Assembly: GCA_965224465.1 (NCBI GenBank) | Contig: OZ245049.1 | Coordinates: 3,150,001-3,182,000, forward strand | DNA: 32,000 nt | Source: Flavobacteriaceae bacterium | Lineage (GTDB): Bacteria; Bacteroidota; Bacteroidia; Flavobacteriales; Flavobacteriaceae | Direction: 5' to 3' | Part shown: positions 4,774 through 27,242 of the stretch, piece after piece | Numbering within the stretch: position 1 is the stretch's first letter | Layout: each line of letters begins with the position of its first letter | Notes under the pieces: generated by a model | The model's input: only the letters and a program-made list of their open reading frames with translations | What the model was told of the DNA's origin: nothing | Databases searched by the model: none | Program-made: the position numbers and the translations under genes

Positions 4774-4840
4774 CCAAATACATTTCCAAGTGAAGGTTTA
4801 GAAAACAACCTATTTATATCGGTCAGTTTGGATTGTGTGG
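4774..4840 (-). repeat. MITE-like repeat, copy F (67-bp mini-copy, the two ends joined)
   Basis: The reverse complement reads CCACACAATCCAAACTGACCGATATAAATAGGTTGTTTTCTAAACCTTCACTTGGAAATGTATTTGG. That is the 5' end plus the 3' end of the full copies at 16509 and 19859. Confidence 0.75.
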
Positions 4841-4929
4841 TATTATTTAACAATTCGGCCACCATTAACTAACATCCAATTAACCATTAGTTTACATAGG
4901 AGTCTGTTCTTTGTTGAAAATAGAAATAG

Positions 4930-5319
4930 ATGAAAAATTGGTTTTTTATAGGTGTGTTGCTTGTAGGCTGTCAACTGTTTTCTCAAGGACTTGATGTCTC
5001 ATTGGTCTCGGGATTTATACAGACAGGGAGTGTAAAAGGGAAGGTGTTCGATGCCAATGATGGGGATGGGCATTTGGTCTTTGCTACTGTTGTAGTTAAA
5101 GAATTAGAGCTGCAAATGGAAACAGATATAGAGGGTGCTTTTAATTTTCAGCTATCGCCTGGGCGCTATACGCTGGAGGTAAATTTTATAGGGTACCAAG
5201 AGCAGCTATTTTTAGTAGAGGTAGTTGGAGGTGACACTTCTAGAAAAACGGTGTTTTTAGAACCTTTAAAAATCCAATCAGCTCCATTGTTAGAGCCGAT
5301 TGATTCTTTTCAGTTTTAA
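4930..5319 (+). CDS. carboxypeptidase-regulatory-like (CarboxypepD_reg) domain protein; possibly the N-terminal stub of a TonB-dependent receptor
   Basis: Signal peptide MKNWFFIGVLLVGCQLFSQ, then GSVKGKVFDANDGDGHLVFATVVV...GAFNFQLSPGRYTLEVNFIGYQEQ, which is typical of the domain that precedes the plug in SusC-like receptors. Only 129 aa. Confidence 0.6.
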   Translation: MKNWFFIGVLLVGCQLFSQGLDVSLVSGFIQTGSVKGKVFDANDGDGHLVFATVVVKELELQMETDIEGAFNFQLSPGRYTLEVNFIGYQEQLFLVEVVGGDTSRKTVFLEPLKIQSAPLLEPIDSFQF

Positions 5320-5329
5320 ATAGTTTTTA

Positions 5330-5428
5330 GGCAAATGTATTTCAAGGGATCGTTCTCAAAATAGAATTGTTTAGGTTTTTTTAATGCCAAAAAAACTATT
5401 TATATCGGTTATTTTGGACTGTAATTGG
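5330..5428 (-). repeat. MITE-like repeat, copy E (99 bp, internally rearranged or deleted)
   Basis: The reverse complement starts CCAATTACAGTCCAAAATAACCGATATAAATAGTTT and ends CCCTTGAAATACATTTGCC. It fills the gap between convergent genes and ends 2 nt from the dut stop codon. Confidence 0.7.
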
Positions 5429-5430
5429 AA

Positions 5431-5862
5431 TTAGACGCCTGTACTTCCAAAACCTCCAGTACCACGCTCTGTTTCGTCAAGGGTTTCTACCAGTTTCCAT
5501 TCGGCACGTTCGTGTTTTGCTATGACTAGTTGTGCAATTCTGTCACCGTCATTCACAGTAAAATCATCATTGGAAATATTGACTAAAATTACGCCTATTT
5601 CTCCGCGATAATCTGCGTCTATAGTTCCAGGGGCATTCAAAACTGTGATTCCGTTTTTGGCTGCCAATCCGCTGCGTGGGCGTACTTGTGCTTCGGTACC
5701 TACGGGAAGTGCAATAAATAAGCCTGTTTTTATAATGGCGCGTTGCAATGGTTTTAAAACGATAGCTTCTGATATATTTGCGCGTAAATCCATCCCAGCG
5801 GAAGCTGCTGTTTCGTAGGTTGGAGTTTGGTGTTTAGACTTGTTAATTAGTTGAATATTCAT
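5431..5862 (-). CDS. dut: dUTP diphosphatase
   Basis: [31 protein letters not shown] and the C-terminal [10 protein letters not shown] motif. 143 aa. Confidence 0.95.
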
Positions 5863-5867
5863 AGTTG

Positions 5868-7322
5868 TTATTTTTTAGTGATAATGCGTATTATGTTTTT
5901 TTTTTCTTGCCAGAAAATAATCACTGAAAAAGCGATGCATAGCCCCGTGGATACCCAATAGTTCCCTCGGAAACAAAGGAAAGAAATGGCAGAAATAAGG
6001 ATAGAAGCGCTTAAGTAAATAGCGATTTTTGATAAATTATAAGATACGGGATAGTATTTTTTTCCATAGAAATAAGAGAGTGTCATCATGCATCCATAGG
6101 CGGTTAGTGTTGCCCAAGCTGCTGAAATGACTCCGTAAATTGGTAAAAACACAACATTTATGATAATTGTGATTATAGCGCCTGTTATAGAAAAGTACAT
6201 ACCATACCGTGTTTTGTCTGTTAATTTATACCAAATAGATAAGTTGTGGTAAATGCCTAAGAACAAATAGGCTAATAGTACGATAGGGACAATGGATAGT
6301 GCGCTCCAATAGTTGTGGTTGATCAACAGTTTTATAAGGTCTATATAGCTTACAATTCCAACAAAAACGAGTGCTCCAATGATTACAAAATAGTTCAATA
6401 TTTTGGCATAGGTCTCTTTGGCGTTTTTTTCTTTTGCATGATTAAAAAAGAAAGGTTCTGCTCCCAATCTAAAAGCCATAATATACAAATTCATAAAAAT
6501 AGCGAGTTTGTAAACAGCGGCATAAACACCTTCACTTTCTTTGTTTATATAATGTCCTATTAATAGTTTGTCTAAATGCTCATTAACCGTATAAGCGATT
6601 CCTGCAATTAAAATTGGCCAACCGTAGGACAGCATTTTTTTAAGTAGTTTGAAACTGAATTTAAACTTGAATTTGATTAAATACGGAATTAACAAGAATA
6701 AACAAACAGCACTTCCCAGAAGATTTGCAATAAAAATAAAGTTGATTATTTGTGTGCTATTAAATGCATCTCCTAAAAAATCTGGAATGGATATGCCCTT
6801 GTCCAATTGCAGGGGTATCCATCGTAAAAACAACAAGTTTACGAGGACTATAATTCCGACGTTTGTCAGTTTTAAAAAGGCGTATTTTAAAGGCCTGTTT
6901 GAAGCACGTAAAAGAGCAAAAGGCACCATGGCTAGGGTGTCTAAAATTAGGATTCCAACAAGTAATTTAAACTGAATAGGATTGTTTTCAAAATTAAACA
7001 ACTGAATTAATTCTGATGCAAAAATAATACTGAGCACCCCAAATAATAGCGTTGTGAAAAGGATGCTAAAAAAGGCGGTGGAGACAAGGCTGTCTTTTTG
7101 TTTTTCTTGATTGTAAAATCTAAAGAAAGCGGTTTCCATACCGTAGGTTAACAAAACGGAAAATAGTGCTGCCCAAATGTAAAAATCCGTATTTTCTGCA
7201 TAACTTTTTGGAGGTAAGGCGTCTGTTTGGACTCTGACAAGTAGAAAATTAATCACTCTTGGAAGCACGGCAGCCATTCCATAGATGATAGTGTCTTTGA
7301 AAAACTTTTTTAGAATACTCAA
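5868..7322 (-). CDS. polysaccharide/oligosaccharide flippase family protein (Wzx-like, MOP superfamily)
   Basis: 484 aa and polytopic (about 12-14 hydrophobic helices). The N-terminus [29 protein letters not shown] is typical of polysaccharide biosynthesis/flippase proteins. The stop lies 5 nt before the dut start, so the two are probably co-transcribed. Confidence 0.75.
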
Positions 7323-7346
7323 AAATGTAATGTTTTATTTAGACTT

Positions 7347-7354
7347 CAAAAGTA
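7347..7354 (-). promoter_or_regulatory. candidate -7 box (TACTTTTG on the minus strand) for the flippase-dut operon
   Basis: Plus-strand CAAAAGTA at 7347-7354 is TAnnTTTG on the minus strand, 25 nt upstream of the ATG at 7322. Confidence 0.35.
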
Positions 7355-7471
7355 CATAATATGTTTTGAATCTTGTCAAAGATCTACAAATAGATGGATT
7401 GTAAAGAGCAGATTTAAGAGCTTTGGAAAAGACTTAACATTTGTTTTTTAAGTCAATTGCTCAAGTTTTGT

Positions 7472-7479
7472 TACTTTTG
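7472..7479 (+). promoter_or_regulatory. candidate -7 box (TACTTTTG) for gpsA
   Basis: Exact TAnnTTTG match, 24 nt upstream of the ATG at 7503. Confidence 0.35.
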
Positions 7480-7502
7480 GCTATTCAAAAGGGAAATAAT
7501 AT

Positions 7503-8498: not shown

Positions 8499-8624
8499 GG
8501 ACCGATGTCAATTGTATGTTGCAATGCAATATTGTAAAGTATCGTTGATGCAAGATATGCGTATTAAAGCTGTTATTCTTGATGATTCAGGACACCTGTT
8601 TTTGGCAGGTAAAAAGACAAATAA

Positions 8625-8657
8625 AAAACCTAAGCTGTAATGTCTTAGGTTTTTTTT
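8625..8657. terminator. intrinsic terminator after gpsA (bidirectional form)
   Basis: AAAACCTAAG (8625-8634), loop CTGTAATGT, CTTAGGTTTT (8644-8653), with the T run extending to 8657. An A run on the left and a T run on the right allow function on both strands. Confidence 0.7.
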
Positions 8658-8682
8658 ATCGCTTAATAGTAAGTAGTCTTAT

Positions 8683-8829
8683 CCCAAATATCGGTTTAGA
8701 AATGGAATTACTTTTTGTTTTATCTAGGTGTAAAATTTAAGGATATCCTTAAATATCGTTGTATTTTTTAACAACGCCAGCACGTAAAATAGACTATTTG
8801 TATCGGTTATTTTGGTTTTGGTATAATTG
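8683..8829 (-). repeat. MITE-like repeat, copy D (near full length)
   Basis: The reverse complement reads CAATTATACCAAAACCAAAATAACCGATACAAATAGTCTATTTTACGTGC...ATTTAAGGATATCCTTAAAT...TAATTCCATTTCTAAACCGATATTTGG. It is colinear with copies A and B, with a perfect internal hairpin and a short deletion near the 3' end. It ends 1 nt from the stop codon of the 8831..9232 ORF. Confidence 0.8.
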
Positions 8830-8830
8830 T

Positions 8831-9232
8831 CTATTTTAAAAGAACACCTCGTTTTTCTAAAAGAGGAATCATTCGTAAAGTACTTTCTTTTACGGTTCCT
8901 TTTTCAAACGAGTATCTTTTGTCAAACATTTTATGGTCGTTAAAAAATGTCACATTAAAAAAATTGGTAAGTTTTAAGAGATCTTCTTGCATCAATTCTA
9001 CTTTTGCAAATGATTTTGCAGACATAGATTCTATTTTATGGCGGAACACGGCTGTTTCTTGTAAAGTGTCCTCGTTGTATCCTTTGGATACTATCAGTAC
9101 CATATCTATTGCGGTTTCTTTGTTGTTGATGATGTATGCGTTCCAGTCATCGCATTGAAATTCTGTATTGTATTCCTTTACAATGGCCATGAATACATTT
9201 TCAACCTCGGTAATTTCAATATCTTTTTTCAT
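8831..9232 (-). CDS. hypothetical protein
   Basis: 133-aa ORF with coding-like composition. It lies downstream of and co-oriented with pheS. No motif recognised. Confidence 0.5.
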   Translation of the reverse strand: MKKDIEITEVENVFMAIVKEYNTEFQCDDWNAYIINNKETAIDMVLIVSKGYNEDTLQETAVFRHKIESMSAKSFAKVELMQEDLLKLTNFFNVTFFNDHKMFDKRYSFEKGTVKESTLRMIPLLEKRGVLLK

Positions 9233-9243
9233 AAGAGGGCTTT

Positions 9244-9269: not shown

Positions 9270-9287
9270 CTTTGTATTTTTTAAGGT

Positions 9288-10307: not shown

Positions 10308-10326
10308 TTCTATCGTAGTTAAGCGG

Positions 10327-10484: not shown

Positions 10485-11828
10485 ATGGAATCTAAAATTA
10501 AAGCTTTTATGGATTTGGTTGCGTCAAGAGACCAACATCAACCAGAATTCTTGCAGGCAGTGCAGGAAGTTGCTGAAACTGTAATCCCTTATATATCAGG
10601 TAAAAAGATGTATAGTGAAAAAAACTTATTACTTAGAATGGTAGAGCCCGAAAGAGTGTTAACTTTTCGTGTAGCTTGGGTAGATGATTCGGGAGAAATA
10701 CAAGTAAATAGAGGATATCGTATCGAAATGAATTCAGCTATTGGCCCTTATAAAGGAGGCTTGCGTTTTCATCCTACTGTAAATTTGAGTATTTTAAAAT
10801 TCTTAGCTTTTGAGCAAGTATTTAAAAATGCCTTAACTACTTTGCCTATGGGAGGTGGTAAAGGAGGTTCTGATTTTGACCCTAAAGGGAAAACGGACAA
10901 TGAAATAATGCGCTTTTGCCAGTCGTTTATGAGTGAATTGTTCCGTCATATTGGCCCTAATACGGATATCCCTGCTGGAGATATAGGTGTTGGGAGTCGT
11001 GAGATCGGGTATTTGTTTGGAATGTACAAAAAATTGAGAAACGAGTTTACTGGAGTTCTTACTGGAAAGGGGCTTTCTTGGGGAGGTTCTTTGATCCGTC
11101 CTGAGGCTACTGGGTATGGTACCGTGTATTTTGCACAAAGTATGTTGAAGACTCAGAAAGATTCTTTAAAAGGAAAAATAGTGACTGTTTCTGGTGCTGG
11201 AAATGTAGCGCAATACGCTATTGAAAAAGCGACAGAATTAGGAGCTAAAGTGGTTACTTTTTCCGATTCTTCGGGGTATGTATATGATGCAGATGGTGTG
11301 GATGCTGAGAAATTAGCGTTTATTATGGAGTTGAAAAACGAAAGACGTGGTCGTGTAAGTGAGTATGTGACTAAATATCCTTCGGCGAAATTTGTAGCTG
11401 GAGAAAAACCTTGGTCTGTAAAATGTGAGGTAGCATTACCCTGTGCAACTCAAAATGAAATAGACGAGAAGGCTGCTAAAGTATTAATTGCAAACGGAAC
11501 TATCTGTGTAAGTGAAGGGGCTAATATGCCTAGTGTTCCTGAAGCAGTGACCGCATTCCATAAAGCAAAAATATTATATGCTCCAGGGAAAGCATCCAAT
11601 GCTGGTGGAGTAGCAACTTCTGGATTGGAAATGTCTCAAAACTCGTTGCGTATTAATTGGACTCGTACCGAAGTAGATGAGCGCTTAAAACAAATAATGA
11701 TAGATATTCACGCATCATGTTTGAAATATGGAACTCAAGAGGATGGCTATGTGGATTATGTAAGAGGTGCAAATATTGCAGGTTTTGTAAAAGTTGCAGA
11801 TGCCATGTTAGCGCAAGGAATTGTGTAA
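10485..11828 (+). CDS. gdhA: glutamate dehydrogenase, hexameric family, NADP-type coenzyme fingerprint
   Basis: Catalytic block GPYKGGLRFHP, LPMGGGKGGSDFDPKG. The dinucleotide fold VSGAGNVAQYAIEKATELGAKVVTFSDSSG closely resembles E. coli GdhA (GSGNVAQYAIEKA...SDSSG). 447 aa. Confidence 0.9.
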   Translation: MESKIKAFMDLVASRDQHQPEFLQAVQEVAETVIPYISGKKMYSEKNLLLRMVEPERVLTFRVAWVDDSGEIQVNRGYRIEMNSAIGPYKGGLRFHPTVNLSILKFLAFEQVFKNALTTLPMGGGKGGSDFDPKGKTDNEIMRFCQSFMSELFRHIGPNTDIPAGDIGVGSREIGYLFGMYKKLRNEFTGVLTGKGLSWGGSLIRPEATGYGTVYFAQSMLKTQKDSLKGKIVTVSGAGNVAQYAIEKATELGAKVVTFSDSSGYVYDADGVDAEKLAFIMELKNERRGRVSEYVTKYPSAKFVAGEKPWSVKCEVALPCATQNEIDEKAAKVLIANGTICVSEGANMPSVPEAVTAFHKAKILYAPGKASNAGGVATSGLEMSQNSLRINWTRTEVDERLKQIMIDIHASCLKYGTQEDGYVDYVRGANIAGFVKVADAMLAQGIV

Positions 11829-11844
11829 TTTTTTTTTATAATAT

Positions 11845-11987: not shown

Positions 11988-14900
11988 ATGCAAAAAAGAG
12001 AATTGCCGAATTTAAGAACGTATGAATTTCAGGAGTTTGAATTCAATCAGCTAATGCAAAACCGCATTCAGCGAGTGTTAATTGTATGTTCTAATTACGA
12101 TTATTACGGACTGGAGGAAGATGGAAGAATCGAAGAACGTATTTTTAATGAATATACCGATTTAAACCTGAGGTATCCGCCGAGTTTTATACATGCTAAT
12201 TCTGCTAAAAGAGCATTGAAATTAATGGAGTCTCATAAGATAGATCTGATTATTACATGGCTAGACATTGAGAGTTATAAGGCGTATGAAACTGCAGAGC
12301 AGATAAAAGATGCCCATCCAGAGGTGCCTATTGCTGCCTTGAGCCACTATTCTTCTGAGTTGAGTAAAAAGCTGAAATTAGAAAAAAACGAAGTGATTGA
12401 CTATGTGTTTCACTGGAGTGGAAATGTGGATATATTTTTGGCAATTATCAAGTTGACAGAGGATCGCATGAATGCAGAAAAAGACATTAATAAGATTGGG
12501 GTAAAAGCCATTTTATTAGTCGAAGATTCCCTGCGTTTTTATTCGCGTTATATTCCATTGATCTATAAAATTATTTTAAAACAAACTCATGCTTCCATGT
12601 CTGAAGGTTTGAATGAGCACAGGCGTATGAAATTGATGCGGGGACGTCCAAAAATACTTTTGGCTACAACCTATGAAGATGGTTTGTCCTTGTTTGAGAG
12701 TTATCGATACAATTTATTAGGAGTGATTTCCGATGTGTCTTATTCAAAAAATGGAAAGCAAGATGCAGAAGCTGGTTTTATCTTTTTAAAATACGTACGA
12801 TCGTTTAAGCGGTATTTTCCTTTTTTAATTCAGTCGTCTGAAAAGAAAAATGAAAAAAAAGCATTAGAACTCAATGGGAAATTTTTATACAAGCATTCAG
12901 AGACCTTAGAAAAAGAAATTAAAAATTATATTATTAAGTATTTCTCTTTTGGTGATTTTGAATTTTGGGACCCCAATCAAATGAAAGTATTGGCAAAAGT
13001 AAATGATTTGAAAAACTTTCAGAAGGCATTGTCTTTTGTGACCGTTGAGTCTATTTCTTACCATGCCGAACGTAGTGAATATTCAAAATGGTTAAAGTCT
13101 AGGGCTTTATTTCCATTGGCAGATTTGTTTAGTGAGGTGGAGTATTACGATTTTGAGAATCCTGAAGAAATAAGGGATTTTTTGATCGATTCTATCAAGA
13201 CCTATCGCGTGTATCGTTCTCGAGGGGTAATTGCTAAATTTGATAAGAAGAGATACGATGAATATTTAGTGTTTTCAAGAATTGGTGAAGGCGCTTTGGG
13301 TGGAAAAGGACGTGGATTGGCTTTTATCGATTCGTTTCTAAAACGAAATAAATTGTTTAGTAAGTTTAAGGATGTTACCATTTCTATACCGCAAACCGTG
13401 GTGTTGAGTACAGAGGTTTTTGATGAGTTTATGGATACTCACGATTTGATTCAGTTTGTTGCAAAAAATAATGATGATGAGCTTATATTGAAGGAGTTTA
13501 TTTCCAAATCGTTGCCAATATGGGTTCGGGAAGATATTCAGGCGTATTTAGATGTGGCTAAAAACCCTATTGCTGTGCGTTCTTCGAGTGTATTGGAGGA
13601 TTCACATTACCAGCCTTTTGCGGGGGTTTTTGCAACGTATATGGTGCCAAACACCTCTGATGAGAACATGTTGGATATGGTGTGTAATGCTGTAAAATCG
13701 GTGATGGCTTCTGCGTTTTCTCGTAGTAGTAAAGCTTATTTGAAGGCGACGTCACATTCTTTGGAGGAAGATAAAATGGCAGTTATTTTACAAGAAGTGA
13801 TTGGTAAACAATATGAAGATGTCTATTATCCAAACGTTTCTGGAGTGGCTAGATCTATTAATTTTTATCCTTTAGGAGATGAAAAACCAAAGGAGGGAAT
13901 CGCTCATATTGCGATGGGACTCGGAGAGATTATTGTAGGAGGTGGGCGTACACTTAGGTTTTCTCCTTATCATCCTAAAAAAATATTGCAATTATCATCG
14001 CCAGGAGCTTCTCAACGTGATACTCAAAAATTCTTTTATGGCTTAGATATGAATCCAGATAGCTATGTGGTTTCTATTAGTGAGACTGTAAACAAGAAAA
14101 AAATAAGCTTGAGAAAAGCAAAAAATCATGGGTCTTTAAAATTTGTAGCTTCTACGTACGACTTGCAAAACAATGTGATAAGACCAGGAGTTATGCAGGA
14201 TGGAATTCGGGTACTTACTTTTGATCATATTCTTAAATATGATACTTTTCCACTAGCGGATATTTTAAAGGAACTATTGAAAATAGGTCAGCGTGAAATG
14301 CAAAACCCTATAGAAATTGAATTTGCAATAAAGTTAGATGTTCCCAAAGGACAGCCTAAAGAATTTAGTTTTTTGCAAATTAGACCTATTGTAGAAACGG
14401 CAGCTGAGGTAAGTATTGTGCCAGATGATATTGATACTAAAGATACTATTATTTATTCTGAATCTGCCTTGGGTAATGGGAAATACGAAGGGATTGTTGA
14501 TTTTGTATATGTAAAACCAGATACTTTTAATGCAGCAAATACACGTCAAATTGCATTGGCAGTGGAGCAAATGAATAAAAAGTTTGTGGATTCGGGTAAA
14601 AATTATGTACTGGTAGGTCCTGGGCGTTGGGGCTCTAGTGATCCATGGTTAGGAATCCCTGTGATTTGGCCGCAGATTTCAGCAGCAAAAGTAATTGTAG
14701 AGGCTGGATTACATGATTTTAGAATAGATCCTAGCCAAGGGACTCATTTTTTTCAAAATCTAACCTCGTTTAAAGTTGGGTATTTGACCATTAACCCGTT
14801 TATAAATGATGGCTTTTTGGATATTGATTATTTAAATGAACTTGAGGCTGAATTTGAGGATGAGTTTATCCGTCATGTGCATTTTAAAACACCACTTAGT

Positions 14901-15094: not shown

Positions 15095-15155
15095 AGAGCG
15101 TTAAATGGCAAGTCGTGTTGCTTTTTGATTGAACACAAATTTATACGAAATTATT

Positions 15156-16493
15156 ATGAATGCAAACGAGATAATAAATAATTTAGAAGCCAAACATCCT
15201 GGTGAAAAAGAGTATTTACAAGCAGTACATGAGGTTTTAGAATCAATAGAGACTGTGTATAACGAAAACCCTCAGTATGAGGCTGCTAAAATTATTGAGC
15301 GATTGGTAGAACCAGATCGTATTTTTACTTTTAGGATTTCCTGGATGGATGATGCGGGGAATGTAAATGTAAATATAGGGTACAGAGTCCAATTTAACAA
15401 TGCAATTGGCCCTTATAAAGGTGGCTTGAGATTACACCCAAGTGTAAACTTGAGTATTCTTAAGTTTTTAGGTTTTGAGCAAATATTTAAAAATGCCTTA
15501 ACTACCTTACCAATGGGTGGAGGTAAAGGAGGTTCTGATTTTAATCCTAAAGGGAAATCAGACAACGAAATTATGCGTTTCTGTCAAGCGTTTATGTTAG
15601 AATTATGGCGCGTTATTGGCCCAAATACAGATGTTCCTGCTGGGGATATTGGAACTGGTGGACGTGAAATTGGTTTTATGTACGGTATGTATAAAAAACT
15701 ACAACAGGAAAATGCTGGTATTCTTACAGGTAAAGGATTGAATTGGGGTGGTTCTTTGATTCGTCCAGAAGCAACTGGTTTTGGAGCAACGTATTTTGCA
15801 AATCAAATGTTGACCTATAATAAAGATACTTTTAAAGGTAAAACTGTGGCTGTTTCTGGATTTGGAAATGTGGCTTGGGGGGTTGCTTTAAAAGTAACAG
15901 AACTCGGCGGTAAAGTCCTAACTATTTCTGGTCCTGATGGTTATATCTATGATAAAGATGGGTTAGATGCAGATAAAATTGATTATTTATTAGAATTAAG
16001 AGCTTCTAATAACGACATCGTTTCTCCATTTGCTGAGGAATTTCCTGAAGCCGTTTTTGTAGCAGGTAAAAAACCTTGGGAAGTGAAATGTGATATTGCG
16101 ATGCCAAGCGCAATTCAAAACGAATTAAATGGTGATGATGCAAAATTATTGATTGCAAATGGATTGAAATATGCTGTGGAAGTTTCGAATATGGGTTGTA
16201 CGCCTGAGGCGATAGCTGCATTCCATGAAGGGCAAGTGCCTTTTGCTCCTGGTAAAGCTGCAAATGCTGGAGGAGTTGCAGTTTCTGGTTTGGAAATGTC
16301 TCAAAATGCCATGAAGTTAAACTGGTCTAAAGAGGAAGTGGACGAGAAACTTAAAGTGATCATGACTTCAATACATGAGGCTTGTAAAAAATACGGTACA
16401 CAGGAAGATGGATTTGTTGATTATGTAAAAGGAGCAAATATTGCTGGTTTTATTAAAGTGGCAGATTCTATGTTAGATCAAGGAGTGATTTAA
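15156..16493 (+). CDS. glutamate dehydrogenase, hexameric family, NAD-type coenzyme fingerprint
   Basis: The track starts at TTG 15129. The in-frame ATG at 15156 (MNANEIINNLEAKHPGEKEYLQAV) aligns with the N-terminus of the other paralog. The catalytic block is the same as in gdhA. The dinucleotide fold is VSGFGNVAWGVALKVTELGGKVLTISGPDG, as in Clostridium symbiosum-type NAD-GDH (GFGNVAW...SGPDG). Confidence 0.9.
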   Translation: MNANEIINNLEAKHPGEKEYLQAVHEVLESIETVYNENPQYEAAKIIERLVEPDRIFTFRISWMDDAGNVNVNIGYRVQFNNAIGPYKGGLRLHPSVNLSILKFLGFEQIFKNALTTLPMGGGKGGSDFNPKGKSDNEIMRFCQAFMLELWRVIGPNTDVPAGDIGTGGREIGFMYGMYKKLQQENAGILTGKGLNWGGSLIRPEATGFGATYFANQMLTYNKDTFKGKTVAVSGFGNVAWGVALKVTELGGKVLTISGPDGYIYDKDGLDADKIDYLLELRASNNDIVSPFAEEFPEAVFVAGKKPWEVKCDIAMPSAIQNELNGDDAKLLIANGLKYAVEVSNMGCTPEAIAAFHEGQVPFAPGKAANAGGVAVSGLEMSQNAMKLNWSKEEVDEKLKVIMTSIHEACKKYGTQEDGFVDYVKGANIAGFIKVADSMLDQGVI

Positions 16494-16508
16494 TAGCCTT
16501 ATATGACA

Positions 16509-16663
16509 CCAATTACAATCCAAAATAACCGATATAAATAGTTTATTTTGCGTTCTAGAGTTGTTTAAAAATAGAATGATAGCTAAGGTTATCCATCCAT
16601 TTTTCGCCTAGCTAGAACAAAAAATAATTCCATTTCTAAACCGTCACTTGGAAATGTATTTGG
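16509..16663 (+). repeat. MITE-like repeat, copy A (full length, 155 bp)
   Basis: CCAATTACAATCCAAAATAACCGATATAAATAGTTTATTTTGCG...GATAGCTAAGGTTATCC...CGCCTAGCTAGAACAAAAAATAATTCCATTTCTAAACCGTCACTTGGAAATGTATTTGG. The termini are an imperfect inverted repeat: CCAATTACA versus the reverse complement of TGTATTTGG, which is CCAAATACA. It starts 15 nt after the gdh stop. Confidence 0.85.
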
Positions 16664-16672
16664 TACGATACT

Positions 16673-16701
16673 AAAAAAGCAGCCAATTTGGCTGCTTTTT
16701 T
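16673..16701. terminator. bidirectional intrinsic terminator
   Basis: A6, GCAGCC (16679-16684), loop AATTT, GGCTGC (16690-16695), T6. It lies between convergent gdh (+) and the MORN-repeat gene (-). Confidence 0.8.
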
Positions 16702-16721
16702 AGTATATACTTGCTTCTTTG

Positions 16722-17060
16722 TTACAGCGTGATTTCTTTTTTATCTAGGGCTATAATTTTATTGTTTTTGTAGGTGATGATGTTCACCACTGTAGCTTTG
16801 TAGTATTTCCAAACACCTTCTTTTTTTCCTTTTTTATAGTTGGCAATACTGGTGATGTTTCCTTCTCTGTTGTAGCTAGTCCAAGTACCATCTAAGTCGC
16901 CTTTGCCATTAAAATAACCGACTTTTTCTATGGATGCGTTGTCTTGGTAATAATATGTTGCTTTTACTTTTTTGTTTATTTTTTCGTAATCTATACGTTG
17001 TTTCTGTGCAAACCCTGTCAATACAAATAATGCTATTACGATGCTAAATAATCCCCTCAT
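16722..17060 (-). CDS. MORN-variant repeat (YwqK-like) secreted or periplasmic protein
   Basis: GKGDLDGTWTSYNREGNITSIANYKKGKKEGVWKYY is the MORN variant repeat. I prefer the internal ATG at 17060 (MRGLFSIVIALFVLTGFAQ, a signal peptide) over the track start at 17135. Confidence 0.65.
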   Translation of the reverse strand: MRGLFSIVIALFVLTGFAQKQRIDYEKINKKVKATYYYQDNASIEKVGYFNGKGDLDGTWTSYNREGNITSIANYKKGKKEGVWKYYKATVVNIITYKNNKIIALDKKEITL

Positions 17061-17143
17061 GGCTCTATGTTTTAAAATTGATAAATTGTTTTTTTTTGAT
17101 AGTATAAAATTAAGGATTTTATATCTCGTTAACAATTTAATGA

Positions 17144-17236
17144 CAAAAGCTTAACATTGGAATAGGTGAAAAACAATAAAACAAGACAGGTAAAAGCTTG
17201 TGTTTTATAGTGTTGACATCTAATGTTAAGCTTTTG
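17144..17236. other. 93-bp element bounded by a 15-bp perfect inverted repeat
   Basis: CAAAAGCTTAACATT (17144-17158) is the exact reverse complement of AATGTTAAGCTTTTG (17222-17236). The inner ATAAAACA / TGTTTTAT could form a nested stem. It lies between the MORN-gene start and the nrdA terminator. Confidence 0.5.
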
Positions 17237-17241
17237 ATCTC

Positions 17242-17282
17242 AAAAGAGTCCCCCTTACCTTATTTAATAAAGTAAAGGGCTC
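17242..17282 (-). terminator. probable intrinsic terminator of nrdA
   Basis: On the minus strand, GAGCCCTTTAC...GTAAGGGGGACTC forms an imperfect stem of about 12-15 bp, followed by TTTT (plus-strand A4 at 17242-17245). Confidence 0.5.
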
Positions 17283-17314
17283 TTTAGAGGGGGTAGTTGT
17301 ACTACAGTATTTTT

Positions 17315-17340
17315 AAGCCGTCATTTAGGAATGTATTTGG
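17315..17340 (+). repeat. MITE-like repeat, copy G (3'-end fragment only)
   Basis: AAGCCGTCATTTAGGAATGTATTTGG matches the 3' terminus AAACCGTCACTTGGAAATGTATTTGG of copy A. It ends 8 nt from the nrdA stop codon. Confidence 0.55.
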
Positions 17341-17348
17341 TTTTACAG

Positions 17349-19727
17349 TTAAGACCCACACATTTCGCAATCGTCGGGATTGTTTTGGGATGCGGTAAGC
17401 ATGGATTTTAATTCTTCTGGGGATAAGGAGGTTTCCTTATCTTTCTTTTTTGATACGGTGAATTGTATGGCGTTTACGGCGCTTTTGGTTCTCAAATAAT
17501 ACATGCCTGTTTTTAATCCAGATTTCCAAGCGTAAAAATGCATGGAAGTTAATTTGGCAAAATTCGGTTCTTGCATAAATAAGTTTAAGGATTGTGACTG
17601 GTCTATAAAATAGCCGCGTTGCCTGGACATGTCAATAATGTCTTTCATGCTCATTTCCCATACTGTTTTGTACAAGTCTTTTAATTCTTGAGGAATAATG
17701 TCTATGTGTTGGATGGAGCCATTGGCACGCATAATGTCTTCTTTCATATCGTTGTTCCACAGGTTCAGTGCTACGAGGTCTTCTAGTAGGTGTTTGTTGA
17801 CCACAATAAACTCTCCTGAAAGTACGCGGCGCGTATATATGTTAGAAGTATAAGGTTCAAAGGCTTCGTTGTTTCCTAGGATTTGGGAGGTAGATGCTGT
17901 AGGCATAGGAGCGACTAATAAGGAGTTTCTCAGTCCGTTTTTTACCACTTCTTTGCGTAGCTTTTTCCAGTCCCAACGTCCGCTTAAATCATCTTCAGAA
18001 ATGTTCCACATGTTAAATTGAAATTCTCCTTTACTCATGGGTGATCCTTTGAAAGTAGAATATGCTTCTTTTGAGGTTGCCATTTCCATGGATGCGGTAA
18101 CCGCTGCAAAGTAGATGGTTTCAAATATGTCACTGTTTAAGCTCTTGGCGGCATCGCTGGTAAATGGCATTCGAAGCATTATAAACGCATCCGCCAATCC
18201 TTGAATTCCTAATCCGATAGGGCGGTGACGCATGTTTGAGTTTTCGGCTTCTTTTACGGGATAGTAATTTCTATCGATAACAGTGTCTAGGTTGTTTGTA
18301 ATTTTCTTGGTGATTTTAAATAGGTGTTCATGGTTGAAGAATTTTTCTCCCTGTTCGTTTTCTTCAATAAACATTGGCAAGGCGATAGAAGCTAAATTAC
18401 AAACGGCAATTTCGTCTTTGGCTGTGTACTCTATAATTTCAGTACATAAATTTGAAGATCTAATTACGCCTAAATTTTTCTGGTTGGATTTACGATTGGC
18501 TGCGTCTTTGTAAAGCATATATGGGTTTCCCGTTTCTATTTGTGCTTCTAGTATTTTTTCCCATAAGAGACGTGCTTTGATTGTTTTTCTCCCTTTTCCT
18601 TCTTTTTCGTAGCGCGTGTAAAGTGCTTCAAATTCATCTCCGTATACATTGTATAGATTGGGGCATTCGTTTGGACACATAAGCGTCCATGCTGCATTTT
18701 CCTCCACGCGTTTCATAAATAAATCAGAAATCCACATGGCTAAAAATAAATCTCTTGCGCGCATTTCTTCTTTTCCTGTATTCTTTTTTAGGTCTAAAAA
18801 GTCAAAAACATCGGCATGCCATGGTTCTAAGTATATGGCAAATGATCCCTTTCGTTTTCCTCCTCCTTGATCTACATACCTAGCGGTATCGTTGTACACT
18901 TTTAGCATGGGTACAATTCCATTAGAAGTCCCGTTTGTACCTCTGATATAGGATCCTGTTGCGCGAATGTTGTGGATAGAAATTCCGATTCCGCCAGCCG
19001 ATTGAGAAATTTTAGCGGTCTGTTTTAGGGTGTCGTAGATTCCGTCTATACTATCGTCTTGCATTTGTAATAAAAAACAAGAAGACATTTGAGGTTTTGG
19101 AGTTCCCGAATTAAATAGGGTAGGAGTTGCATGGGTAAAGTACTTCTTAGACATTAATTCGTATGTAGCGATAGCTTCGTCAATGTCTTCTTTGTGAATT
19201 CCTATTGCCACACGCATCAACATGTGTTGTGGACGCTCTGCAATGTGTCCGTTTAGTTTTAACAAGTAACTTCTTTCGAGTGTTTTAAAACCAAAATAAT
19301 CATAGTTGAAATCGCGATTATAGATAATGGTGGAGTCTAATTTTGCGGCATTTTTTTTGATGATTTCGTGGACGTCATCTGCAAGTAATGGTGCTTTTTG
19401 ACCTGTGCGAGGACTTATGTATGTGTATAAGTCCGTCATAACTTCGGAAAATGATTTCTTGGTATTCTTATGTAGGTTGGATACGGAAATTCTAGCTGCG
19501 AGCTTTGCGTAATCTGGATGTTGAACAGTCATGGTTGCTGCTATTTCTGCTGCCAAATTATCCAACTCCGAAGTGGTCACTCCGTCGTACAATCCTTCAA
19601 TCACGCGCATGGCTACTTTTACAGGGTCTACTAGACTGTTCAGTCCGTAGCACATTTTTCGTACTCTTGCTGTAATCTTATCAAACATTACGGGTTCTTT
19701 TCCTCCATTTCTTTTTAATACGTACAT
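17349..19727 (-). CDS. nrdA: ribonucleoside-diphosphate reductase alpha subunit (class I, eukaryote-like)
   Basis: ATP-cone start [20 protein letters not shown]. Catalytic motifs [15 protein letters not shown] and [17 protein letters not shown]-terminal redox pair CEMCGS. 792 aa. Confidence 0.95.
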
Positions 19728-19858
19728 CTGCTGTTATTTAGTTTTTAGAACACTTTTTTATGTTTGTTTCTAAAGTGTAGTCACAAGATAATCTTGAGCA
19801 TACATGCTTTTGGTAAACATATTGTAAGTGCTGCTTATTTGTTAGTTTAGTCTTATAT

Positions 19859-20012
19859 CAATATCAATTCAAAATAACCGATATGAATAGTTTATTTTAC
19901 GTGCGGGTGTTGTTGAAAAACAGAACGATAGCTAAGGCTATCCTTAGATTTCCCGCCTAGCTAGAACAAAAAATAATTCCATTTCTAAACCGTTACTTGG
20001 AAATGTATTGGG
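19859..20012 (+). repeat. MITE-like repeat, copy B (full length, 154 bp) inside the nrdB-nrdA spacer
   Basis: Colinear with copy A throughout: ...CAAAATAACCGATATGAATAGTTTATTTTACGTGCGGGTGTTGTTGAAAAACAGAACGATAGCTAAGGCTATCCTTAG...CGCCTAGCTAGAACAAAAAATAATTCCATTTCTAAACCGTTACTTGGAAATGTATTGGG. It is antisense to the nrd genes. Confidence 0.85.
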
Positions 20013-20068
20013 TCTTATTAAAAGACGATGATTGTTTTAGCGTACTTGTTTTTTTTGTGGAGATATTG

Positions 20069-21040
20069 TTAAAAATCTGCATCAAAACCTATTGCTCCTG
20101 TTCCACCGCTTTTTACACCTGCTTTTTGATATTCCGAAACGCGTTTTTCAAAGAAGTTTGTTTTTCCTTCGAGTGATATCATTTCCATAAAATCAAAGGG
20201 ATTACTGACATTGTATACTTTTTCACATTCAAATTCTAACAACAAACGATCCGTTACAAATTCCAAGTATTGGGTCATGAGTTTAGCATTCATTCCGATT
20301 AAGCTGACGGGTAAAGACTCTGTAATAAATCTGCGCTCAATATCTAATGCATTTGTTAAAATATGTGTAATGCGTTCTTTTGGAACTTTATTGATAATGT
20401 GGTGGTTGTGTAAGTGAACCGCAAAGTCACAGTGTAGGCCTTCATCTCTAGAAATTAGTTCGTTAGAAAATGTGAGTCCAGGTAGTAAACCGCGTTTTTT
20501 AAGCCAAAATATAGAACAAAAACTACCTGAAAAGAAAATGCCTTCTACGGCGGCAAAAGCAATCAATCGTTCTGCAAAACTTGGACTGTCTATCCAGTTA
20601 AGTGCCCAATCTGCTTTTTCTTTGATTGCTGGGAAATGGTCTATAGCAGTAAATAATTCAGATTTCTCAGCTTCGTTTTTCACATAGGTATCTATCAATA
20701 AAGAATATACTTCTGAGTGGATGTTTTCCATCATGATTTGAAAACCATAAAAGAATTTTGCTTCTGGGTATTGAACCTCAGACACAAAATTTTCTGCTAA
20801 GTTCTCGTTTACAATGCCGTCAGATGCTGCAAAAAAGGCTAGGATATGTTTGATAAAATAGCGTTCGTCATCCGTTAATTTGGTTTCCCAATCAATTACA
20901 TCTTGGTGTAAGTCTATTTCTTCAGCAGTCCAGATACTAGCTTCTTGTTTTTTGTACCATTCCCATAAATCGTGATGTTGGATAGGGAAAATAACGAATC
21001 GGTTTTTGTTTTCTTGTAGTATAGGTTCAATAGCTGGCAT
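20069..21040 (-). CDS. nrdB: ribonucleoside-diphosphate reductase beta subunit (class I, eukaryote-like)
   Basis: Metal and radical-site motifs [18 protein letters not shown] and [11 protein letters not shown]-terminal FDADF tail like eukaryotic R2. 323 aa. Confidence 0.95.
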
Positions 21041-21106
21041 CGTTTTGTTTTAAGTGGTCGTTTTTAGTTTTACAAAGATTGTCATTTTTTTTTAATAAAA
21101 CTAAGG

Positions 21107-21140
21107 TGACTTATTCACAATGCCCTATGACTTATTCACA
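21107..21140 (-). promoter_or_regulatory. 13-bp perfect direct repeat upstream of nrdB (candidate operator)
   Basis: TGACTTATTCACA occurs at 21107-21119 and again at 21128-21140 (21-bp period), 67-100 nt upstream of the nrdB ATG. On the gene strand each reads TGTGAATAAGTCA and contains TGA-N5-TCA dyad symmetry. Confidence 0.45.
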
Positions 21141-21349
21141 GTTTTGAGTATTTTAAGAGTGCTGTATGTTTTATAAAATGTTGTAAATAAGTAATTTATG
21201 TTTGTGCTTATTGGTTTTTTGCTGTGTGGTTTTGCGTTTTGTACAAGGTTGGTGTGTGAAATGTTTATTGTAAAATTAAATAATTATTCCGTTCTTTATA
21301 ATAGTTATAAATAAGGATAGTAATTTTCGAATTAGTATAAACTCAGTTA

Positions 21350-21432
21350 GACCGATGGCTATCCATCCATTTATCGCCTAGCTAAAACATAAAATAATTC
21401 ATTTCTAAACCGTCTCTTGGAAATGTATTTGG
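21350..21432 (+). repeat. MITE-like repeat, copy C (3' half clear; 5' half diverged)
   Basis: GACCGATGGCTATCCATCCATTTATCGCCTAGCTAAAACATAAAATAATTCATTTCTAAACCGTCTCTTGGAAATGTATTTGG aligns with the 3' 85 bp of copy A. Weak similarity may extend upstream to about 21305. Confidence 0.75.
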
Positions 21433-21777
21433 TATTGTTGTTTTAGAAAGGATGCGTTGGTATCTCGCTCGTTTATTTTGGGCAGTGGAATTGTACTGCT
21501 CTCTTAATTTTTATAAACACCCGTAAAAGGGGAACATCGTTTTGTGTTTAAAAGGGAACGGATTTTCGGAAGTGTGTTTTGTCCCCTTGGGTTGAGCTTA
21601 TTGATTTATAGCGTTTAAATTTTTGAGAATTAACTATTTCCATCTTGTTGGCGTTTGTGGTTTTATTTTGAGGCTTTATTGTTTTACATTTCTTAAAAAA
21701 TGTGTATTTTTCACGAATCTAAAGAATGAAGCTGTTTTCTATTGATTGGGACGGTTAATTGCTATACTATCAACAAG

Positions 21778-24207: not shown

Positions 24208-24215
24208 GGTGGTTC

Positions 24216-25805
24216 TTAAATAGTTGATGGTTTTTTTTGGTTTGGAAGTGTGAAATTAAAAGAGGTGCCTTTTTTTAATACACTCTCCACCCAAATTCTT
24301 CCTTGGTGTTTTTCTATAAAATCTTTGGTTAGAATTAAGCCAAGTCCTGTTCCTTTTTCTCCATGAGTACCTGTGGTTTTATGAATGTATTCATAATTAA
24401 AAAGTGTTGCAATGCGCTCCTTAGAGATTCCTATTCCATTGTCAGATATTTTTATAATTAGCTCGTTATTTGTATTTGTACATGAAAGCTCTATGCGGCT
24501 GTTTTTGTGACTGTATTTGATGGCGTTTGATATTAAGTTTCTCAAAATTGTATTGAGCATATCTTTGTCTGCAAAGACTTCTAAATGATTGTTTTGTAAG
24601 GCGGTTTTTAGTTCTATTCCCTTGTGCATAGATTGGTATTTTAATACTTGTAACACGGTGTTAAATGCTTCTGAAATTCGAATATTTTTTGGCTCAAAAG
24701 GAAGGCTCCCTTTTTGCACTTGGGTCCATTCTAAAAGGTTTTGTAGCAAGTTAAAGGTGTTTTGAGAAACGTTTTTTATGATTTCTACAGATTCTCTTAC
24801 TTCAGGATCTTCGAGAACTGTCTGATCTTCAAGGAGTAGGTTGCTGAATCCAATTAGAGAATTAAACGGGCCTTTTAAATCATGTGCTATGATAGAAAAA
24901 AACAAATCTTTCGAGATGTTTAGCTCTTGTAAATCTTTGGTTATTTTTTTGTTGATAAAAAGGCTTTTTCGAAGCTCTTTTGTCCTGTTTTCTACGGTTG
25001 TTTTTAAGTGTAATATGGTTTCTTTTTTAAGCTGTAATGCCGATCGGATGATTAATCCAATGGTTACGATGATTAGGATCAGTGCGATTGAGGCTAAAAT
25101 TATAATTCTTTTAATTTTATGTTCCAAGTTGGATCGCTCCGTATTGGTTCTTAGTTCTATAAGTTCATATGCCTTATTAAGTTCTATCATTATTAGTGTT
25201 GTCTGACTATGGTAATGTTCAGAATTCACCAATTCGATGGCTGTTTTTTGATTTAGAATAGCGTCGTAGACCTGTTTTCCTTTTTGATTTCCATCTAGAA
25301 TATAAAATGCTGCTATTTCTAAATGTGTTAATGTTAGCGAATAATTAACAGCTTGTGTGATTATTTCTCCTTCTTGCTTTGTAAAACCCGCGGTAGCTAT
25401 GAGTTTTGATGTTGAGTTTTTAATTTTTTTAATAAATGGAGGTTCTTGATGGTTTTTTGTTGTTAGTAAACTCCAATATACACGGTTAAAATGTTGAGGT
25501 CTAGGAGATGTTCCTTTTCTTATATTTAGTATTTCAAAGTATTGGTTTCTGTACAGTGTATCCTTTGTATTGGTGTATAATCTAGCCAATCGTGTTAGGT
25601 TTTCAGAATTTTGACGGATTTCGTTTATTACTTTTTCAGACTTAAAAGTGTTCTTGGCTATTTTAGAATAGGTGTTTTGTTCTTGGTATATTTTGTAAAA
25701 AAAAGAAATGATAGCAAAAATAAATAGTCCTAGAAAAAGAATCTTAGAGATTAATTTCAGGTATACATCTTTATGGAATTTGAATTCAAGGCTTGTTGTT
25801 TTCAT
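24216..25805 (-). CDS. sensor histidine kinase (HisKA + HATPase_c) with an extracytoplasmic domain of about 190 aa
   Basis: Two TM segments (about residues 22-44 and 233-256). H-box FFSIIAHDLKGPFNSL, N-box LRNLISNAIKYS, G-boxes DNGIGI and GTGLGL. 529 aa. Confidence 0.9.
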   Translation of the reverse strand: MKTTSLEFKFHKDVYLKLISKILFLGLFIFAIISFFYKIYQEQNTYSKIAKNTFKSEKVINEIRQNSENLTRLARLYTNTKDTLYRNQYFEILNIRKGTSPRPQHFNRVYWSLLTTKNHQEPPFIKKIKNSTSKLIATAGFTKQEGEIITQAVNYSLTLTHLEIAAFYILDGNQKGKQVYDAILNQKTAIELVNSEHYHSQTTLIMIELNKAYELIELRTNTERSNLEHKIKRIIILASIALILIIVTIGLIIRSALQLKKETILHLKTTVENRTKELRKSLFINKKITKDLQELNISKDLFFSIIAHDLKGPFNSLIGFSNLLLEDQTVLEDPEVRESVEIIKNVSQNTFNLLQNLLEWTQVQKGSLPFEPKNIRISEAFNTVLQVLKYQSMHKGIELKTALQNNHLEVFADKDMLNTILRNLISNAIKYSHKNSRIELSCTNTNNELIIKISDNGIGISKERIATLFNYEYIHKTTGTHGEKGTGLGLILTKDFIEKHQGRIWVESVLKKGTSFNFTLPNQKKPSTI

Positions 25806-26353
25806 TAAAACACTTTTTGTAGTTGTATATAATTAAAATAACATTCTTTATGTACGCTCTTGACGTAGAAGGAACAATTTAAAAATAATAAAATTTATTT
25901 ATTGTAACAGGGAAGACAGAGGCGTCATATTTAAAAAAGCCAATATAGTAAACCGCTTTGTTATATGATAGATTTCTTTCATAAAATTAACAAATATTAA
26001 TTGTATGAGAATTGAGGTGTTTACGGGAGTCTATAAGTATTAAATCATGCAGTTATACCTTAAAACACATCGTTTATTACTTAAGCCCAGTAAAAACGTA
26101 CTATTATTTGTTGTTTTAATTTAATTAAGCGAATTCGTTTTCGTAGTTGAAATGATTATATTGCAACGTATTTAAAAAATATCTAAATATAAATATTGTC
26201 GTTTTTTTTAAACGTTCCCTTAAACAATGTATAATTCCTTATTAAGAAGTGATTGCTTTCTAACAGATACTTTTTAGGAAATATACCTTAGATCTAACTA
26301 TAAAGAAAGGTCTTGTTTTAATTAATGGAAGTATTTTTTATAAAACAAAAAAA

Positions 26354-27106
26354 ATGATAAGAGCCGTAATTATTGATGATGAACAAGTCAATATAAAATT
26401 GATAGCACGATTGTTAAAAAACAATTGTATGTCTGTAAATATTCTGGGTGTTTCAAATACAAAAGAAGAAGCAGTTAACCTAATCAATCAAGTGAGTCCA
26501 AACCTTATTTTTATGGATGTTAATTTGGATGCTTCTCATACTGGATTTGATGTATTGGAAGAAATTAATTCGTTAGATGCTAAGGTGATCTTTGTGACGT
26601 CTCATAACGAGTTTGCCATTAAAGCATTTGATTATAATACCATTGCTTATTTGGTGAAACCAATAGTAAAAATGGATTTGATTGTAGCTGTCAATAAGGC
26701 CATTCAGGAAATTGAAGATAAATCGTATACCAAAAACACCCAGTTACAAAGTCTTCGAGAGAGTTTGAATTCTGATGTCCGCCAGATTATAGCGGTTCCT
26801 ACAGTAAGAGATATAGAATTAATAAAAGTAAAAAACATTATTTATTTGTCTTCGGATAGTCGTTATACTCATTTTTTTATAAAAGGGGGGAAACATATCA
26901 TTTCGTCTAAAAATTTAGGGAAATATGAAAACTTAATCAGTGGAAATTTCTTTAGAATTCATGCCAAGTATTTTGTAAATGTAGATTATTTACACAAGAT
27001 ACATAAAGAGGTCGGTTCGTCTTATTGTGAAATGGAGACAGGTGATTTATTGACAATATCTCAACGTAAATATTCAGATTTTATGAAGTATTTACGTTTG
27101 AAGTAA
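26354..27106 (+). CDS. LytTR-family response regulator
   Basis: Receiver residues are intact: IIDDE, FMDVNL, VTSH, LVKPI. C-terminal LytTR region IIYLSSDSRYTHFF...FFRIHAKYFVNVDYL. 250 aa. Confidence 0.9.
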   Translation: MIRAVIIDDEQVNIKLIARLLKNNCMSVNILGVSNTKEEAVNLINQVSPNLIFMDVNLDASHTGFDVLEEINSLDAKVIFVTSHNEFAIKAFDYNTIAYLVKPIVKMDLIVAVNKAIQEIEDKSYTKNTQLQSLRESLNSDVRQIIAVPTVRDIELIKVKNIIYLSSDSRYTHFFIKGGKHIISSKNLGKYENLISGNFFRIHAKYFVNVDYLHKIHKEVGSSYCEMETGDLLTISQRKYSDFMKYLRLK

Positions 27107-27131
27107 TTGATAAAATCACTTAATTCCTAGT

Positions 27132-27180
27132 AAAGAAAGCCTTAAAAACATCAGAATATGATGTTTTTAAGGCTTTCTTT
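27132..27180. terminator. 21-bp perfect-stem hairpin between convergent response regulator and SulP genes
   Basis: AAAGAAAGCCTTAAAAACATC (27132-27152), loop AGAATAT, GATGTTTTTAAGGCTTTCTTT (27160-27180). The second arm is the exact reverse complement of the first. T-rich and A-rich ends allow function on both strands. Confidence 0.75.
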
Positions 27181-27190
27181 TATAAAACTC

Positions 27191-27242
27191 ACCAAATGTA
27201 TTTCTATTTAATAGTTTAGAATAGATGTATTCTTGTAATTGG
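27191..27242 (-). repeat. possible MITE-like repeat, copy H (52-bp mini-copy)
   Basis: ACCAAATGTATTTC...CTATTTAATAG..TTTAGAA...CTTGTAATTGG has the same two ends as copy E (GGCAAATGTATTTC ... CTGTAATTGG). It ends 5 nt from the SulP stop codon. It is short and degenerate. Confidence 0.4.

Follow-up and report, generated by a model that had tools for sequence, protein, structure and literature searches.

A dense family of palindromic intergenic repeats, probably of the MITE kind, in a Flavobacteriaceae genome

A 32,000-nucleotide stretch of the genome of a Flavobacteriaceae bacterium (GenBank assembly GCA_965224465.1, contig OZ245049.1, positions 3,150,001 to 3,182,000; hereafter the window) carries a dispersed family of intergenic repeats, of which seven copies are statistically solid and an eighth is borderline. 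These repeats are probably non-autonomous, non-coding derivatives of a DNA transposon, that is, MITEs (miniature inverted-repeat transposable elements) of the palindromic Correia/ERIC/RUP type. The units are small and non-coding, they have terminal inverted repeats, they are dispersed with unrelated flanks and, when orthologous sites are compared, they are polymorphic for insertion. The family already existed before several species of one genus-level Flavobacteriaceae clade diverged, and it has gained new intergenic insertions in the window lineage since then. Old copies lose internal sequence by deletion where they stand, mostly with both ends retained, which yields a series of sizes.

Results and Discussion

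Copies of the repeat in the window

Matches were evaluated with an nhmmer profile of the long copies, with separate profiles of both arms and with a covariance model (CM). Two full-length units lie on the + strand, copy A of 155 bp (16509..16663; nhmmer E = 1e-48) and copy B of 154 bp (19859..20012; nhmmer E = 2e-49), and a near-full unit, copy D, lies on the - strand (8683..8829; nhmmer E = 1.5e-39); the mutual identity of the three is 85-87%. Repeat detection independently returned A and B as a 177-nt direct pair with D as a 131-135-nt inverted partner of both, and it recovered the 3' and 5' blocks each as a multi-copy family. Copy C (21349..21433, + strand) is a 3' half consisting of the central hairpin and the 3' arm (nhmmer E = 5e-18; CM E = 5e-8 for 21329-21435), its 5' part being degenerate or lost. 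Two shorter units on the - strand, the 99-bp internally deleted derivative E (5330..5428; CM E = 6e-8) and the 67-bp short form F (4774..4840; CM E = 2e-10), whose 5' and 3' arms are fused to each other, were matched by the long-copy profile via their two ends.

The two smallest copies call for more caution. Copy G had been described, in an earlier sequence-only reading of this DNA, as a 3' tip at 17315-17340; the tip is real, but it belongs to a longer 3'-arm remnant of ~41 nt (~17301..17341, + strand; 84% identity to the 3' block), to which the full-length nhmmer and CM models give no significance and which the arm profile and repeat detection do match. Copy H, a 51-nt mini-copy that keeps both termini (27192..27242, - strand), is the borderline case (CM E = 0.07; nhmmer E = 0.3). 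Its 5' terminus is exact over 9 nt and is followed, in the right order, by TTCTAAAC in the interior and by an E-type 3' end; the pattern CCAATTACA-N20-50-CATTTGG, which was defined after H had been seen, is expected 0 times (100 shuffles). With these adjustments, and with H as a borderline member, the eight-copy family reported by the sequence-only reading is borne out by nhmmer, CM and repeat detection, and the 5' and 3' blocks and the perfect palindrome of D that it quoted are present as written.

No further convincing copy was found in the window, the best extra match (29792-29923) having a CM E-value of 0.22. Every one of the eight copies lies between genes. The window has 17 spacers of at least 100 bp, 8 of which hold a copy; together the copies amount to 783 bp (2.4% of the window), and they stand as singletons at least 480 bp apart. 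Their flanks are mutually unrelated, and segmental duplication is therefore excluded as the source of the copies, in keeping with the earlier proposal of an independent element as opposed to duplicated gene flanks. The notion that the copies resemble one another by chance, or because gene flanks were duplicated in segments, can thus be regarded as refuted: besides the unrelated flanks, E-values reach down to 1e-49, the 26-nt 3'-block pattern has four matches in the window against 0 expected from shuffles, and copies occur in other genomes. Only one more long repeat is present in the window, between 10636-10935 and 15301-15600; it is not the element but a pair of gdhA paralogues with 76% identity over 300 nt.

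Structure and size variants of the unit

A 155-bp consensus was derived from the aligned long copies, namely A, B and D of the window and those of the loci L003 and L002 in other genomes (see below). Compared with its own reverse complement, this consensus shows 67% identity across its full length, and its self-complementarity score of 143 lies ~7 standard deviations above that of 500 shuffled sequences (66 +/- 11, maximum 98). The whole unit is an imperfect palindrome, and its ends are accordingly imperfect inverted repeats. The termini had been noted as such before; the tips, CCAATTACAATCCAAAATAACCG and CCAAATACATTTCCAAGTGACGG, match as inverted repeats at 21 of 31 positions, and the palindrome extends from them through the entire unit. 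With their borders the arms end in (TA)CCAATTACAATCC... and ...GGAAATGTATTTGG(TA), and the centre is formed by the hairpin GATAGC-TAAG-GCTATC / CTAAGG-CTAT-CCTTAG, which in copy D is the perfect palindrome ATTTAAGGATATCCTTAAAT.

When folded as a single strand, the unit adopts a rod-like structure with z-scores of -3.5 to -5.4 in the best copies, so that the RNA folding suggested earlier as a check returns one long hairpin. The consensus structure, on the minus strand of the element, is a single rod of 45 pairs, and the minus strand gives the more stable fold in every copy. This strand asymmetry was considered as a sign of selection on RNA or single-stranded DNA and was dropped, given that the consensus has 6 versus 2 G-U pairs and that the copies are not independent. 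No listed open reading frame lies within any unit, the units measuring 51-190 bp; prokaryotic MITEs are expected to span about 50-800 bp and to have terminal inverted repeats of at least 10-15 bp. Rfam, which includes Flavobacteria motifs such as Flavo-1, gave no match at the gathering score for the whole window, and for 16400-21500 at E <= 10 it returned only chance-level terminator matches.

Stable predicted folds in intergenic DNA would also be expected if the repeats were small RNA genes or cis-regulatory, riboswitch-like RNAs. The 3'-end variant of E and H, TACATTTG, moreover matches the -7 box of Bacteroidota promoters (consensus TAnnTTTG), and in E a TTTG lies 17 nt upstream, which is a lead only. 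That promoter-like box is, however, missing from the family consensus, and the fold is a plain palindrome as opposed to a multi-stem structure. In addition, the copies lie in both orientations with an inconsistent class of downstream gene, truncated and internally deleted copies are common, and no Rfam family beyond those chance-level terminators is met even at the relaxed E-value. An RNA family of either kind is therefore very unlikely.

The size series of the units runs 155 / 99 / 67 / 51 / ~40 nt. In F (67 nt) and in the copy of the locus L004 (69 nt) the two arms are joined at a short ATTT microhomology. Copy D carries a 4-nt duplication in its 5' arm and lacks ~10-12 nt at the 3' terminus, where it diverges after TTGGGA into ancestral-flank-like sequence. 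That such a series is what transposon derivatives look like had been proposed from the sizes and the retained ends. The short forms do keep both ends, and at one orthologous site at least, that of copy E, an old insertion has undergone internal deletion in situ. The copy of L002 is longer than the consensus (190 bp) and carries two internal insertions of 22 nt and 12 nt. The 22-nt insertion (L002 4960-4985) contains CCAATCATTTGG, a tiny palindrome resembling the element's own tips.

Insertion and decay at orthologous sites

Syntenic loci of ~20 kb in sister species (L012-L017 and L019-L022) were found via relatives of the window's PheS and have a coding nucleotide identity of 79-87%; a further locus, L011, is the same organism as the window and reaches 712 bp beyond its start. 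The intergenic DNA of the sister species is too diverged for base-exact alignment of empty sites. Empty orthologous sites, which the sequence-only reading had named as something to look for, are found at A, B, D and G, where none of the sister loci has a copy. L012-L016, L019, L021 and L022 lack copies at all four sites, and L017 and L020 have one copy only, at site E. Site A is empty in L012, L017, L019, L020 and L022 and site B in L012, L017 and L020, while copy G is an insertion relative to L012, L017, L019 and L022.

Spacer lengths agree with these assignments. The spacer between gdhA-2 and the next gene measures 228 bp in the window versus 78-80 bp in the relatives, and the nrdB-nrdA spacer measures 341 bp versus 192 or 160 bp, differences which are close to the length of the element. 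At site A the stop codon and the terminator hairpin align across all species, with the element between them, and the hairpin that holds copy B in its loop is kept in L017 and L020.

Site E has a different history. It is filled in three lineages by different deletion derivatives and is empty in L012 and L019. The derivative in L017 and L020 (L017 15681-15772) keeps the centre and has lost both tips, and that in L021 (6635-6675) is a ~38-nt relic, TACCAATTGCAAT...ATTAATTGGT, composed of the two tips only and recognised by eye only. Because site E is common to several species and sites A, B, D and G are specific to the window lineage, the family predates the divergence of these species and was later inserted repeatedly in the window lineage. 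The derivatives at site E further show that old copies shrink in place.

Copies in other genomes

The search for copies in relatives, likewise proposed earlier, was positive. In a scan of the GTDB representatives (one genome per species), in which the 3' block was used, four stretches were recovered, all from metagenome-assembled genomes (MAGs) of North Pond (NORP) Flavobacteriaceae, each of a different species. A full copy with 89% identity to A is present in L003, the 190-bp variant in L002, the 69-bp short form in L004 and a 3' end in L001; these loci resemble the window in the element alone, and their flanks are unrelated to it. In total, ~13 copies underlie the family analysis. The pairwise identities of the long copies are 84-91% and star-like, and pairs within the window are no more alike than pairs across species. 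Of the four MAG copies, three lie <2 kb from a contig end, as is expected if the repeat breaks short-read assemblies, and it is this position that leads us to think that the family probably explains why short-read MAGs of the clade break at these places.

Outside this clade the searches returned chance matches or none. A scan of the JGI metagenomes with the 3' block gave six loci (L005-L010), all of them chance 24-mer matches without wider similarity, and a scan of viral contigs with the 5' block gave a single chance match (L018). Blastn of copy A against plasmids and phages gave no match. A near-identical strain with an empty L003 site was sought via the kinase adjoining the L003 copy, and none was found.

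Target site and possible mobilisation

Of 20 flanks, 11 have the dinucleotide TA immediately outside the CC...GG ends, compared with a background frequency of 0.107 for intergenic TA (binomial p = 1.3e-6), and the wider flank consensus is ATA-CC...GG-TAT, the hyphens marking the borders of the unit. The sequence-only reading had seen no target-site duplications by eye, and it had not seen the enrichment of TA. The TA pattern fits a TA-duplicating element at ATAT-like targets and equally an inverted repeat that is 3 nt longer. Direct repeats of 7 nt accompany A (5/7), B (6/7, TCTTATA / TCTTATT) and the L004 copy (6/7); a long target-site duplication was considered, and a permutation test did not support it.

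If the repeats are MITEs, a transposase encoded elsewhere in the genome would bind the ends of the unit and move it in trans. The likeliest type would be one that duplicates TA at AT-rich, ATAT-like targets, similar to that of IS630/Tc1-mariner elements, which duplicate a TA dinucleotide. The copies that survive lie mostly in the gap from stop codon to terminator, where harm would be least, and they would presumably be transcribed there as a long hairpin in the 3' untranslated region (3'-UTR), which could in turn affect the stability or processing of the mRNA.

Several points weigh against this interpretation. First, the inverted repeat itself may include the conserved TA. Second, paired flanks match at 31 of 56 positions versus 27 of 56 when they are swapped (best k = 7, p = 0.125). 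Third, the individual sites conflict: at site B the fit is better with a 7-bp duplication, in that removal of B and one 7-mer leaves a loop of exactly the L017 length, and at site A the flank length is better accounted for by a duplication of 0-2 bp. Fourth, neither the window nor ~250 kb of related loci yielded a transposase or a full-length element with the same ends. Fifth, copies differ by 9-16%, so that no copy can be shown to be recent and mobility may by now have been lost. Finally, the copy number is known for this 32 kb alone. The absence of a transposase from the window had already been reported and agrees with Pfam, which finds none; no transposase adjoins the copies in L001 and the other MAG loci either.

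Placement relative to genes

In five of the eight copies (A, D, E, G and H) one edge comes within 1-15 nt of a stop codon, and the copy precedes the terminator. Copy A begins 15 nt past the stop codon of gdhA-2 and before a terminator hairpin (16676-16699), D adjoins the stop codon of a gene for a 133-aa protein, E nearly fills the 111-bp spacer between the convergent dUTPase and CarboxypepD_reg genes, G lies 7 nt from the nrdA stop codon, and H lies 5 nt past the SulP stop codon and before a terminator (27132-27180). Copy B is located in the nrdB-nrdA spacer, 56 nt from a stop codon and within the loop of a conserved hairpin (TTAGTCT...AGAC), and C occupies the divergent nrdB / PIF1-helicase spacer; divergent promoter regions harbour both C and F. 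The orientation of A, D, E and H is sense to the upstream gene, and B and G are antisense. Under a null of uniform insertion, 6% of the pre-insertion intergenic positions fall within 15 nt of a stop codon, which gives P(>=5/8) = 4e-5 with a threshold chosen post hoc and with survivorship outside the null.

This placement is one argument for a different view, in which the repeats are a selected, structured intergenic element, a REP/ERIC-like 3'-UTR hairpin that stabilises or processes the transcript and that was spread by an unknown or extinct mechanism. Four of the five copies next to a stop codon are sense to the upstream gene, and the rod-like fold is retained in all long copies. Cross-species copies are as alike as those within the genome, yet the surrounding intergenic DNA cannot be aligned between species, and in the central hairpin some changes affect both sides (for example, AAGG/CCTT versus ATGG/CCAT and CTAAGG/CCTTAG versus TTAAGG/CCTTAA). 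Covariation is nevertheless slight, comprising 1-2 of 21-45 pairs in five sequences. Orientation is mixed, with B and G antisense to the neighbouring transcript, and the strand that folds more stably, the minus strand, differs from the one transcribed in A, D, E and H. Furthermore, copies decay freely via deletion, the same genes do without them in sister species, and the position near stop codons would arise just as well if purifying selection had removed insertions elsewhere, or if the target were TA-rich. We thus consider a selected 3'-UTR element unlikely.

A second way to account for the placement would be a real insertion preference for the gap between stop codon and terminator, together with a lineage-specific burst in this 5.2-Mb subseafloor genome, in place of a tolerated MITE. 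We regard this as improbable. Were it true and the window typical, the genome would hold ~1 copy per 4 kb, or about a thousand copies, compared with none in 20 kb of syntenic DNA in sister species. A long hairpin would have been added to many 3'-UTRs, and the transposase, or its way of targeting, could be of a kind still undescribed in the Bacteroidota. The stop-codon-proximal placement would be the only point of the family that is worth specialist attention.

Relation to known repeat families

A MITE remains the probable identity of the family, and its resemblance to known systems is one of architecture only. The Correia elements of Neisseria (CREE/NEMIS) are closest in architecture, with ERIC also close. 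Correia elements are palindromic non-coding units of ~155 and ~105 bp with imperfect terminal inverted repeats and TA at both borders; the shorter class arises by internal deletion, and the elements are dense in intergenic DNA and often co-transcribed with their neighbours. To our knowledge, they have no cognate transposase. Their size, imperfect terminal inverted repeats, TA borders, internally deleted class and intergenic density are all found in the family described here. Its sequence appears unrelated, however, and its hosts belong to another phylum, the Bacteroidota. Moreover, an IHF site, a promoter and RNase III effects are described for Correia elements, and the present family, unlike them, favours the gap between stop codon and terminator.

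The ERIC (or IRU) elements of enterobacteria are imperfect palindromes over their full length of ~127 bp, occur in transcribed intergenic DNA, have size variants that arise by internal deletion or insertion and vary in presence and absence between related species. The present family shares the whole-length imperfect palindrome, the size variants and the presence or absence between species; it differs in that the sequences appear unrelated and in that ERIC is highly conserved across genera, whereas this family was found in one Flavobacteriaceae clade only. The RUP elements of Streptococcus pneumoniae are small, TA-flanked intergenic units with inverted repeats, exist in many copies and are thought to be moved in trans by an IS630-family transposase. 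The small inverted-repeat unit, the TA borders and the intergenic location are common to the present family and to RUP and other IS630-derived MITEs, but here the palindrome covers the whole unit and not just its ends, and site B suggests a duplication of ~7 bp and not of TA.

Repetitive extragenic palindromes (REPs), finally, are 20-40 nt long. They usually occur as arrays in which units of alternating orientation are clustered, and a RAYT gene, for an IS200/IS605-like Y1 transposase, adjoins or serves them. The sequence-only reading had left transposon derivatives and REP/BIME-like elements side by side. The former is supported, and the latter does not fit: the family resembles REP/BIME sequences in being palindromic, extragenic and frequently 3' of genes, but its units are singletons of ~155 bp, no REP-type short palindrome is present, and the window contains no RAYT gene.

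A survey with MITE Tracker has reported tens of thousands of distinct MITEs in Bacteroidota, including Flavobacterium (PMC11602168). Our literature search found no description of this particular repeat family, which can be likened to the catalogue of that survey by general class only. The family is unusually dense in the window, but it is of an ordinary, well-known kind, a new addition which changes nothing in the knowledge of bacterial repeats. Within the Correia/ERIC class, whose units are palindromic over their whole length, it is an added example from the Bacteroidota, and one orthologous site shows units shrinking while their ends persist. It also provides a ready-made marker for strain typing and marks insertion sites and breakpoints in a poorly known clade, with copy F exactly at a break in synteny.

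Gene neighbourhood and further observations

The window has a G+C content of 34.5%. Its genes are housekeeping genes; pheS, two gdhA paralogues on either side of a PPDK_N-domain gene, nrdAB, dut, gpsA and hypAB are among them, as are the genes for SulP, a two-component system, a PIF1-like helicase and a urea transporter. PheS of the window is ~87% identical to that of Lutibacter and 96-97% identical to those of uncultured 'Flavobacteriaceae bacterium' MAGs; judged from these protein sequences, the host is a member of the Flavobacteriaceae near Lutibacter.

Synteny with all sister species ends exactly at copy F (window 4841-4856), after the conserved sequence AAATTGTTAAATAATA. Beyond F the window (3038-4569) has a truncated gene for an RND/AcrB-type pump (ACR_tran), present as fragments of 216 and 248 aa, and the relatives have an HD-domain gene or, in L021, an islet of HTH, Peptidase_M78 and Imm17 genes. 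From its gene content this region looks like a hotspot of variable DNA. Close by, L012 (14402-15235), L017 (14412-15245) and L020 have, between dut and the polysaccharide-synthesis gene, a gene for an esterase (PF00756) that is absent from the window (site 5863-5867), L019 and L021.

The spacer that holds copy D, 3' of the gene for the 133-aa protein, carries a (CCTGTGT)n microsatellite in L012 (11680-11740) and L013 (~6740-6790) and tandem units of ~22 nt (AATCAGGACTACTTGATCCAAG) in L021 (3340-3450). On the other side of the same gene, towards the pheS terminator, L017 and L020 have ~140 extra bp (L017 11080-11220) that are found neither in the window nor in L012 and are unrelated to the repeat family.

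The gdhA paralogues (10485-11828 and 15129-16493) flank a gene for a 1025-aa PPDK_N-domain protein, an arrangement kept in all sister species. Within this PPDK_N gene the L011 sequence (1-1007, compared with window 12214-13468) shows an apparent gap of 256 bp and a noisy 1-kb end, a difference that is probably an assembly artefact at the end of the ENA long-read contig.

A conserved inverted repeat of 16-18 bp, AAAAGCTTAACATTGG / CTAATGTTAAGCTTTT, with a non-conserved loop of ~59 nt, is located at 17145-17237 between the nrdA terminator and an open reading frame of 112 aa with a signal peptide. It has no Rfam match, and its arms also occur at the orthologous place in L012, L017, L019, L020 and L022. 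We considered it as a second dispersed family and dropped this idea, as it represents a single orthologous locus; it may act as a hairpin with a regulatory role, or its arms may be paired sites for protein binding. At the end of the window (29958-31977) lie hypA, hypB and the urea transporter gene. The best non-self homologue of the transporter is merely 60% identical, and for this reason the block looks accessory to the lineage.

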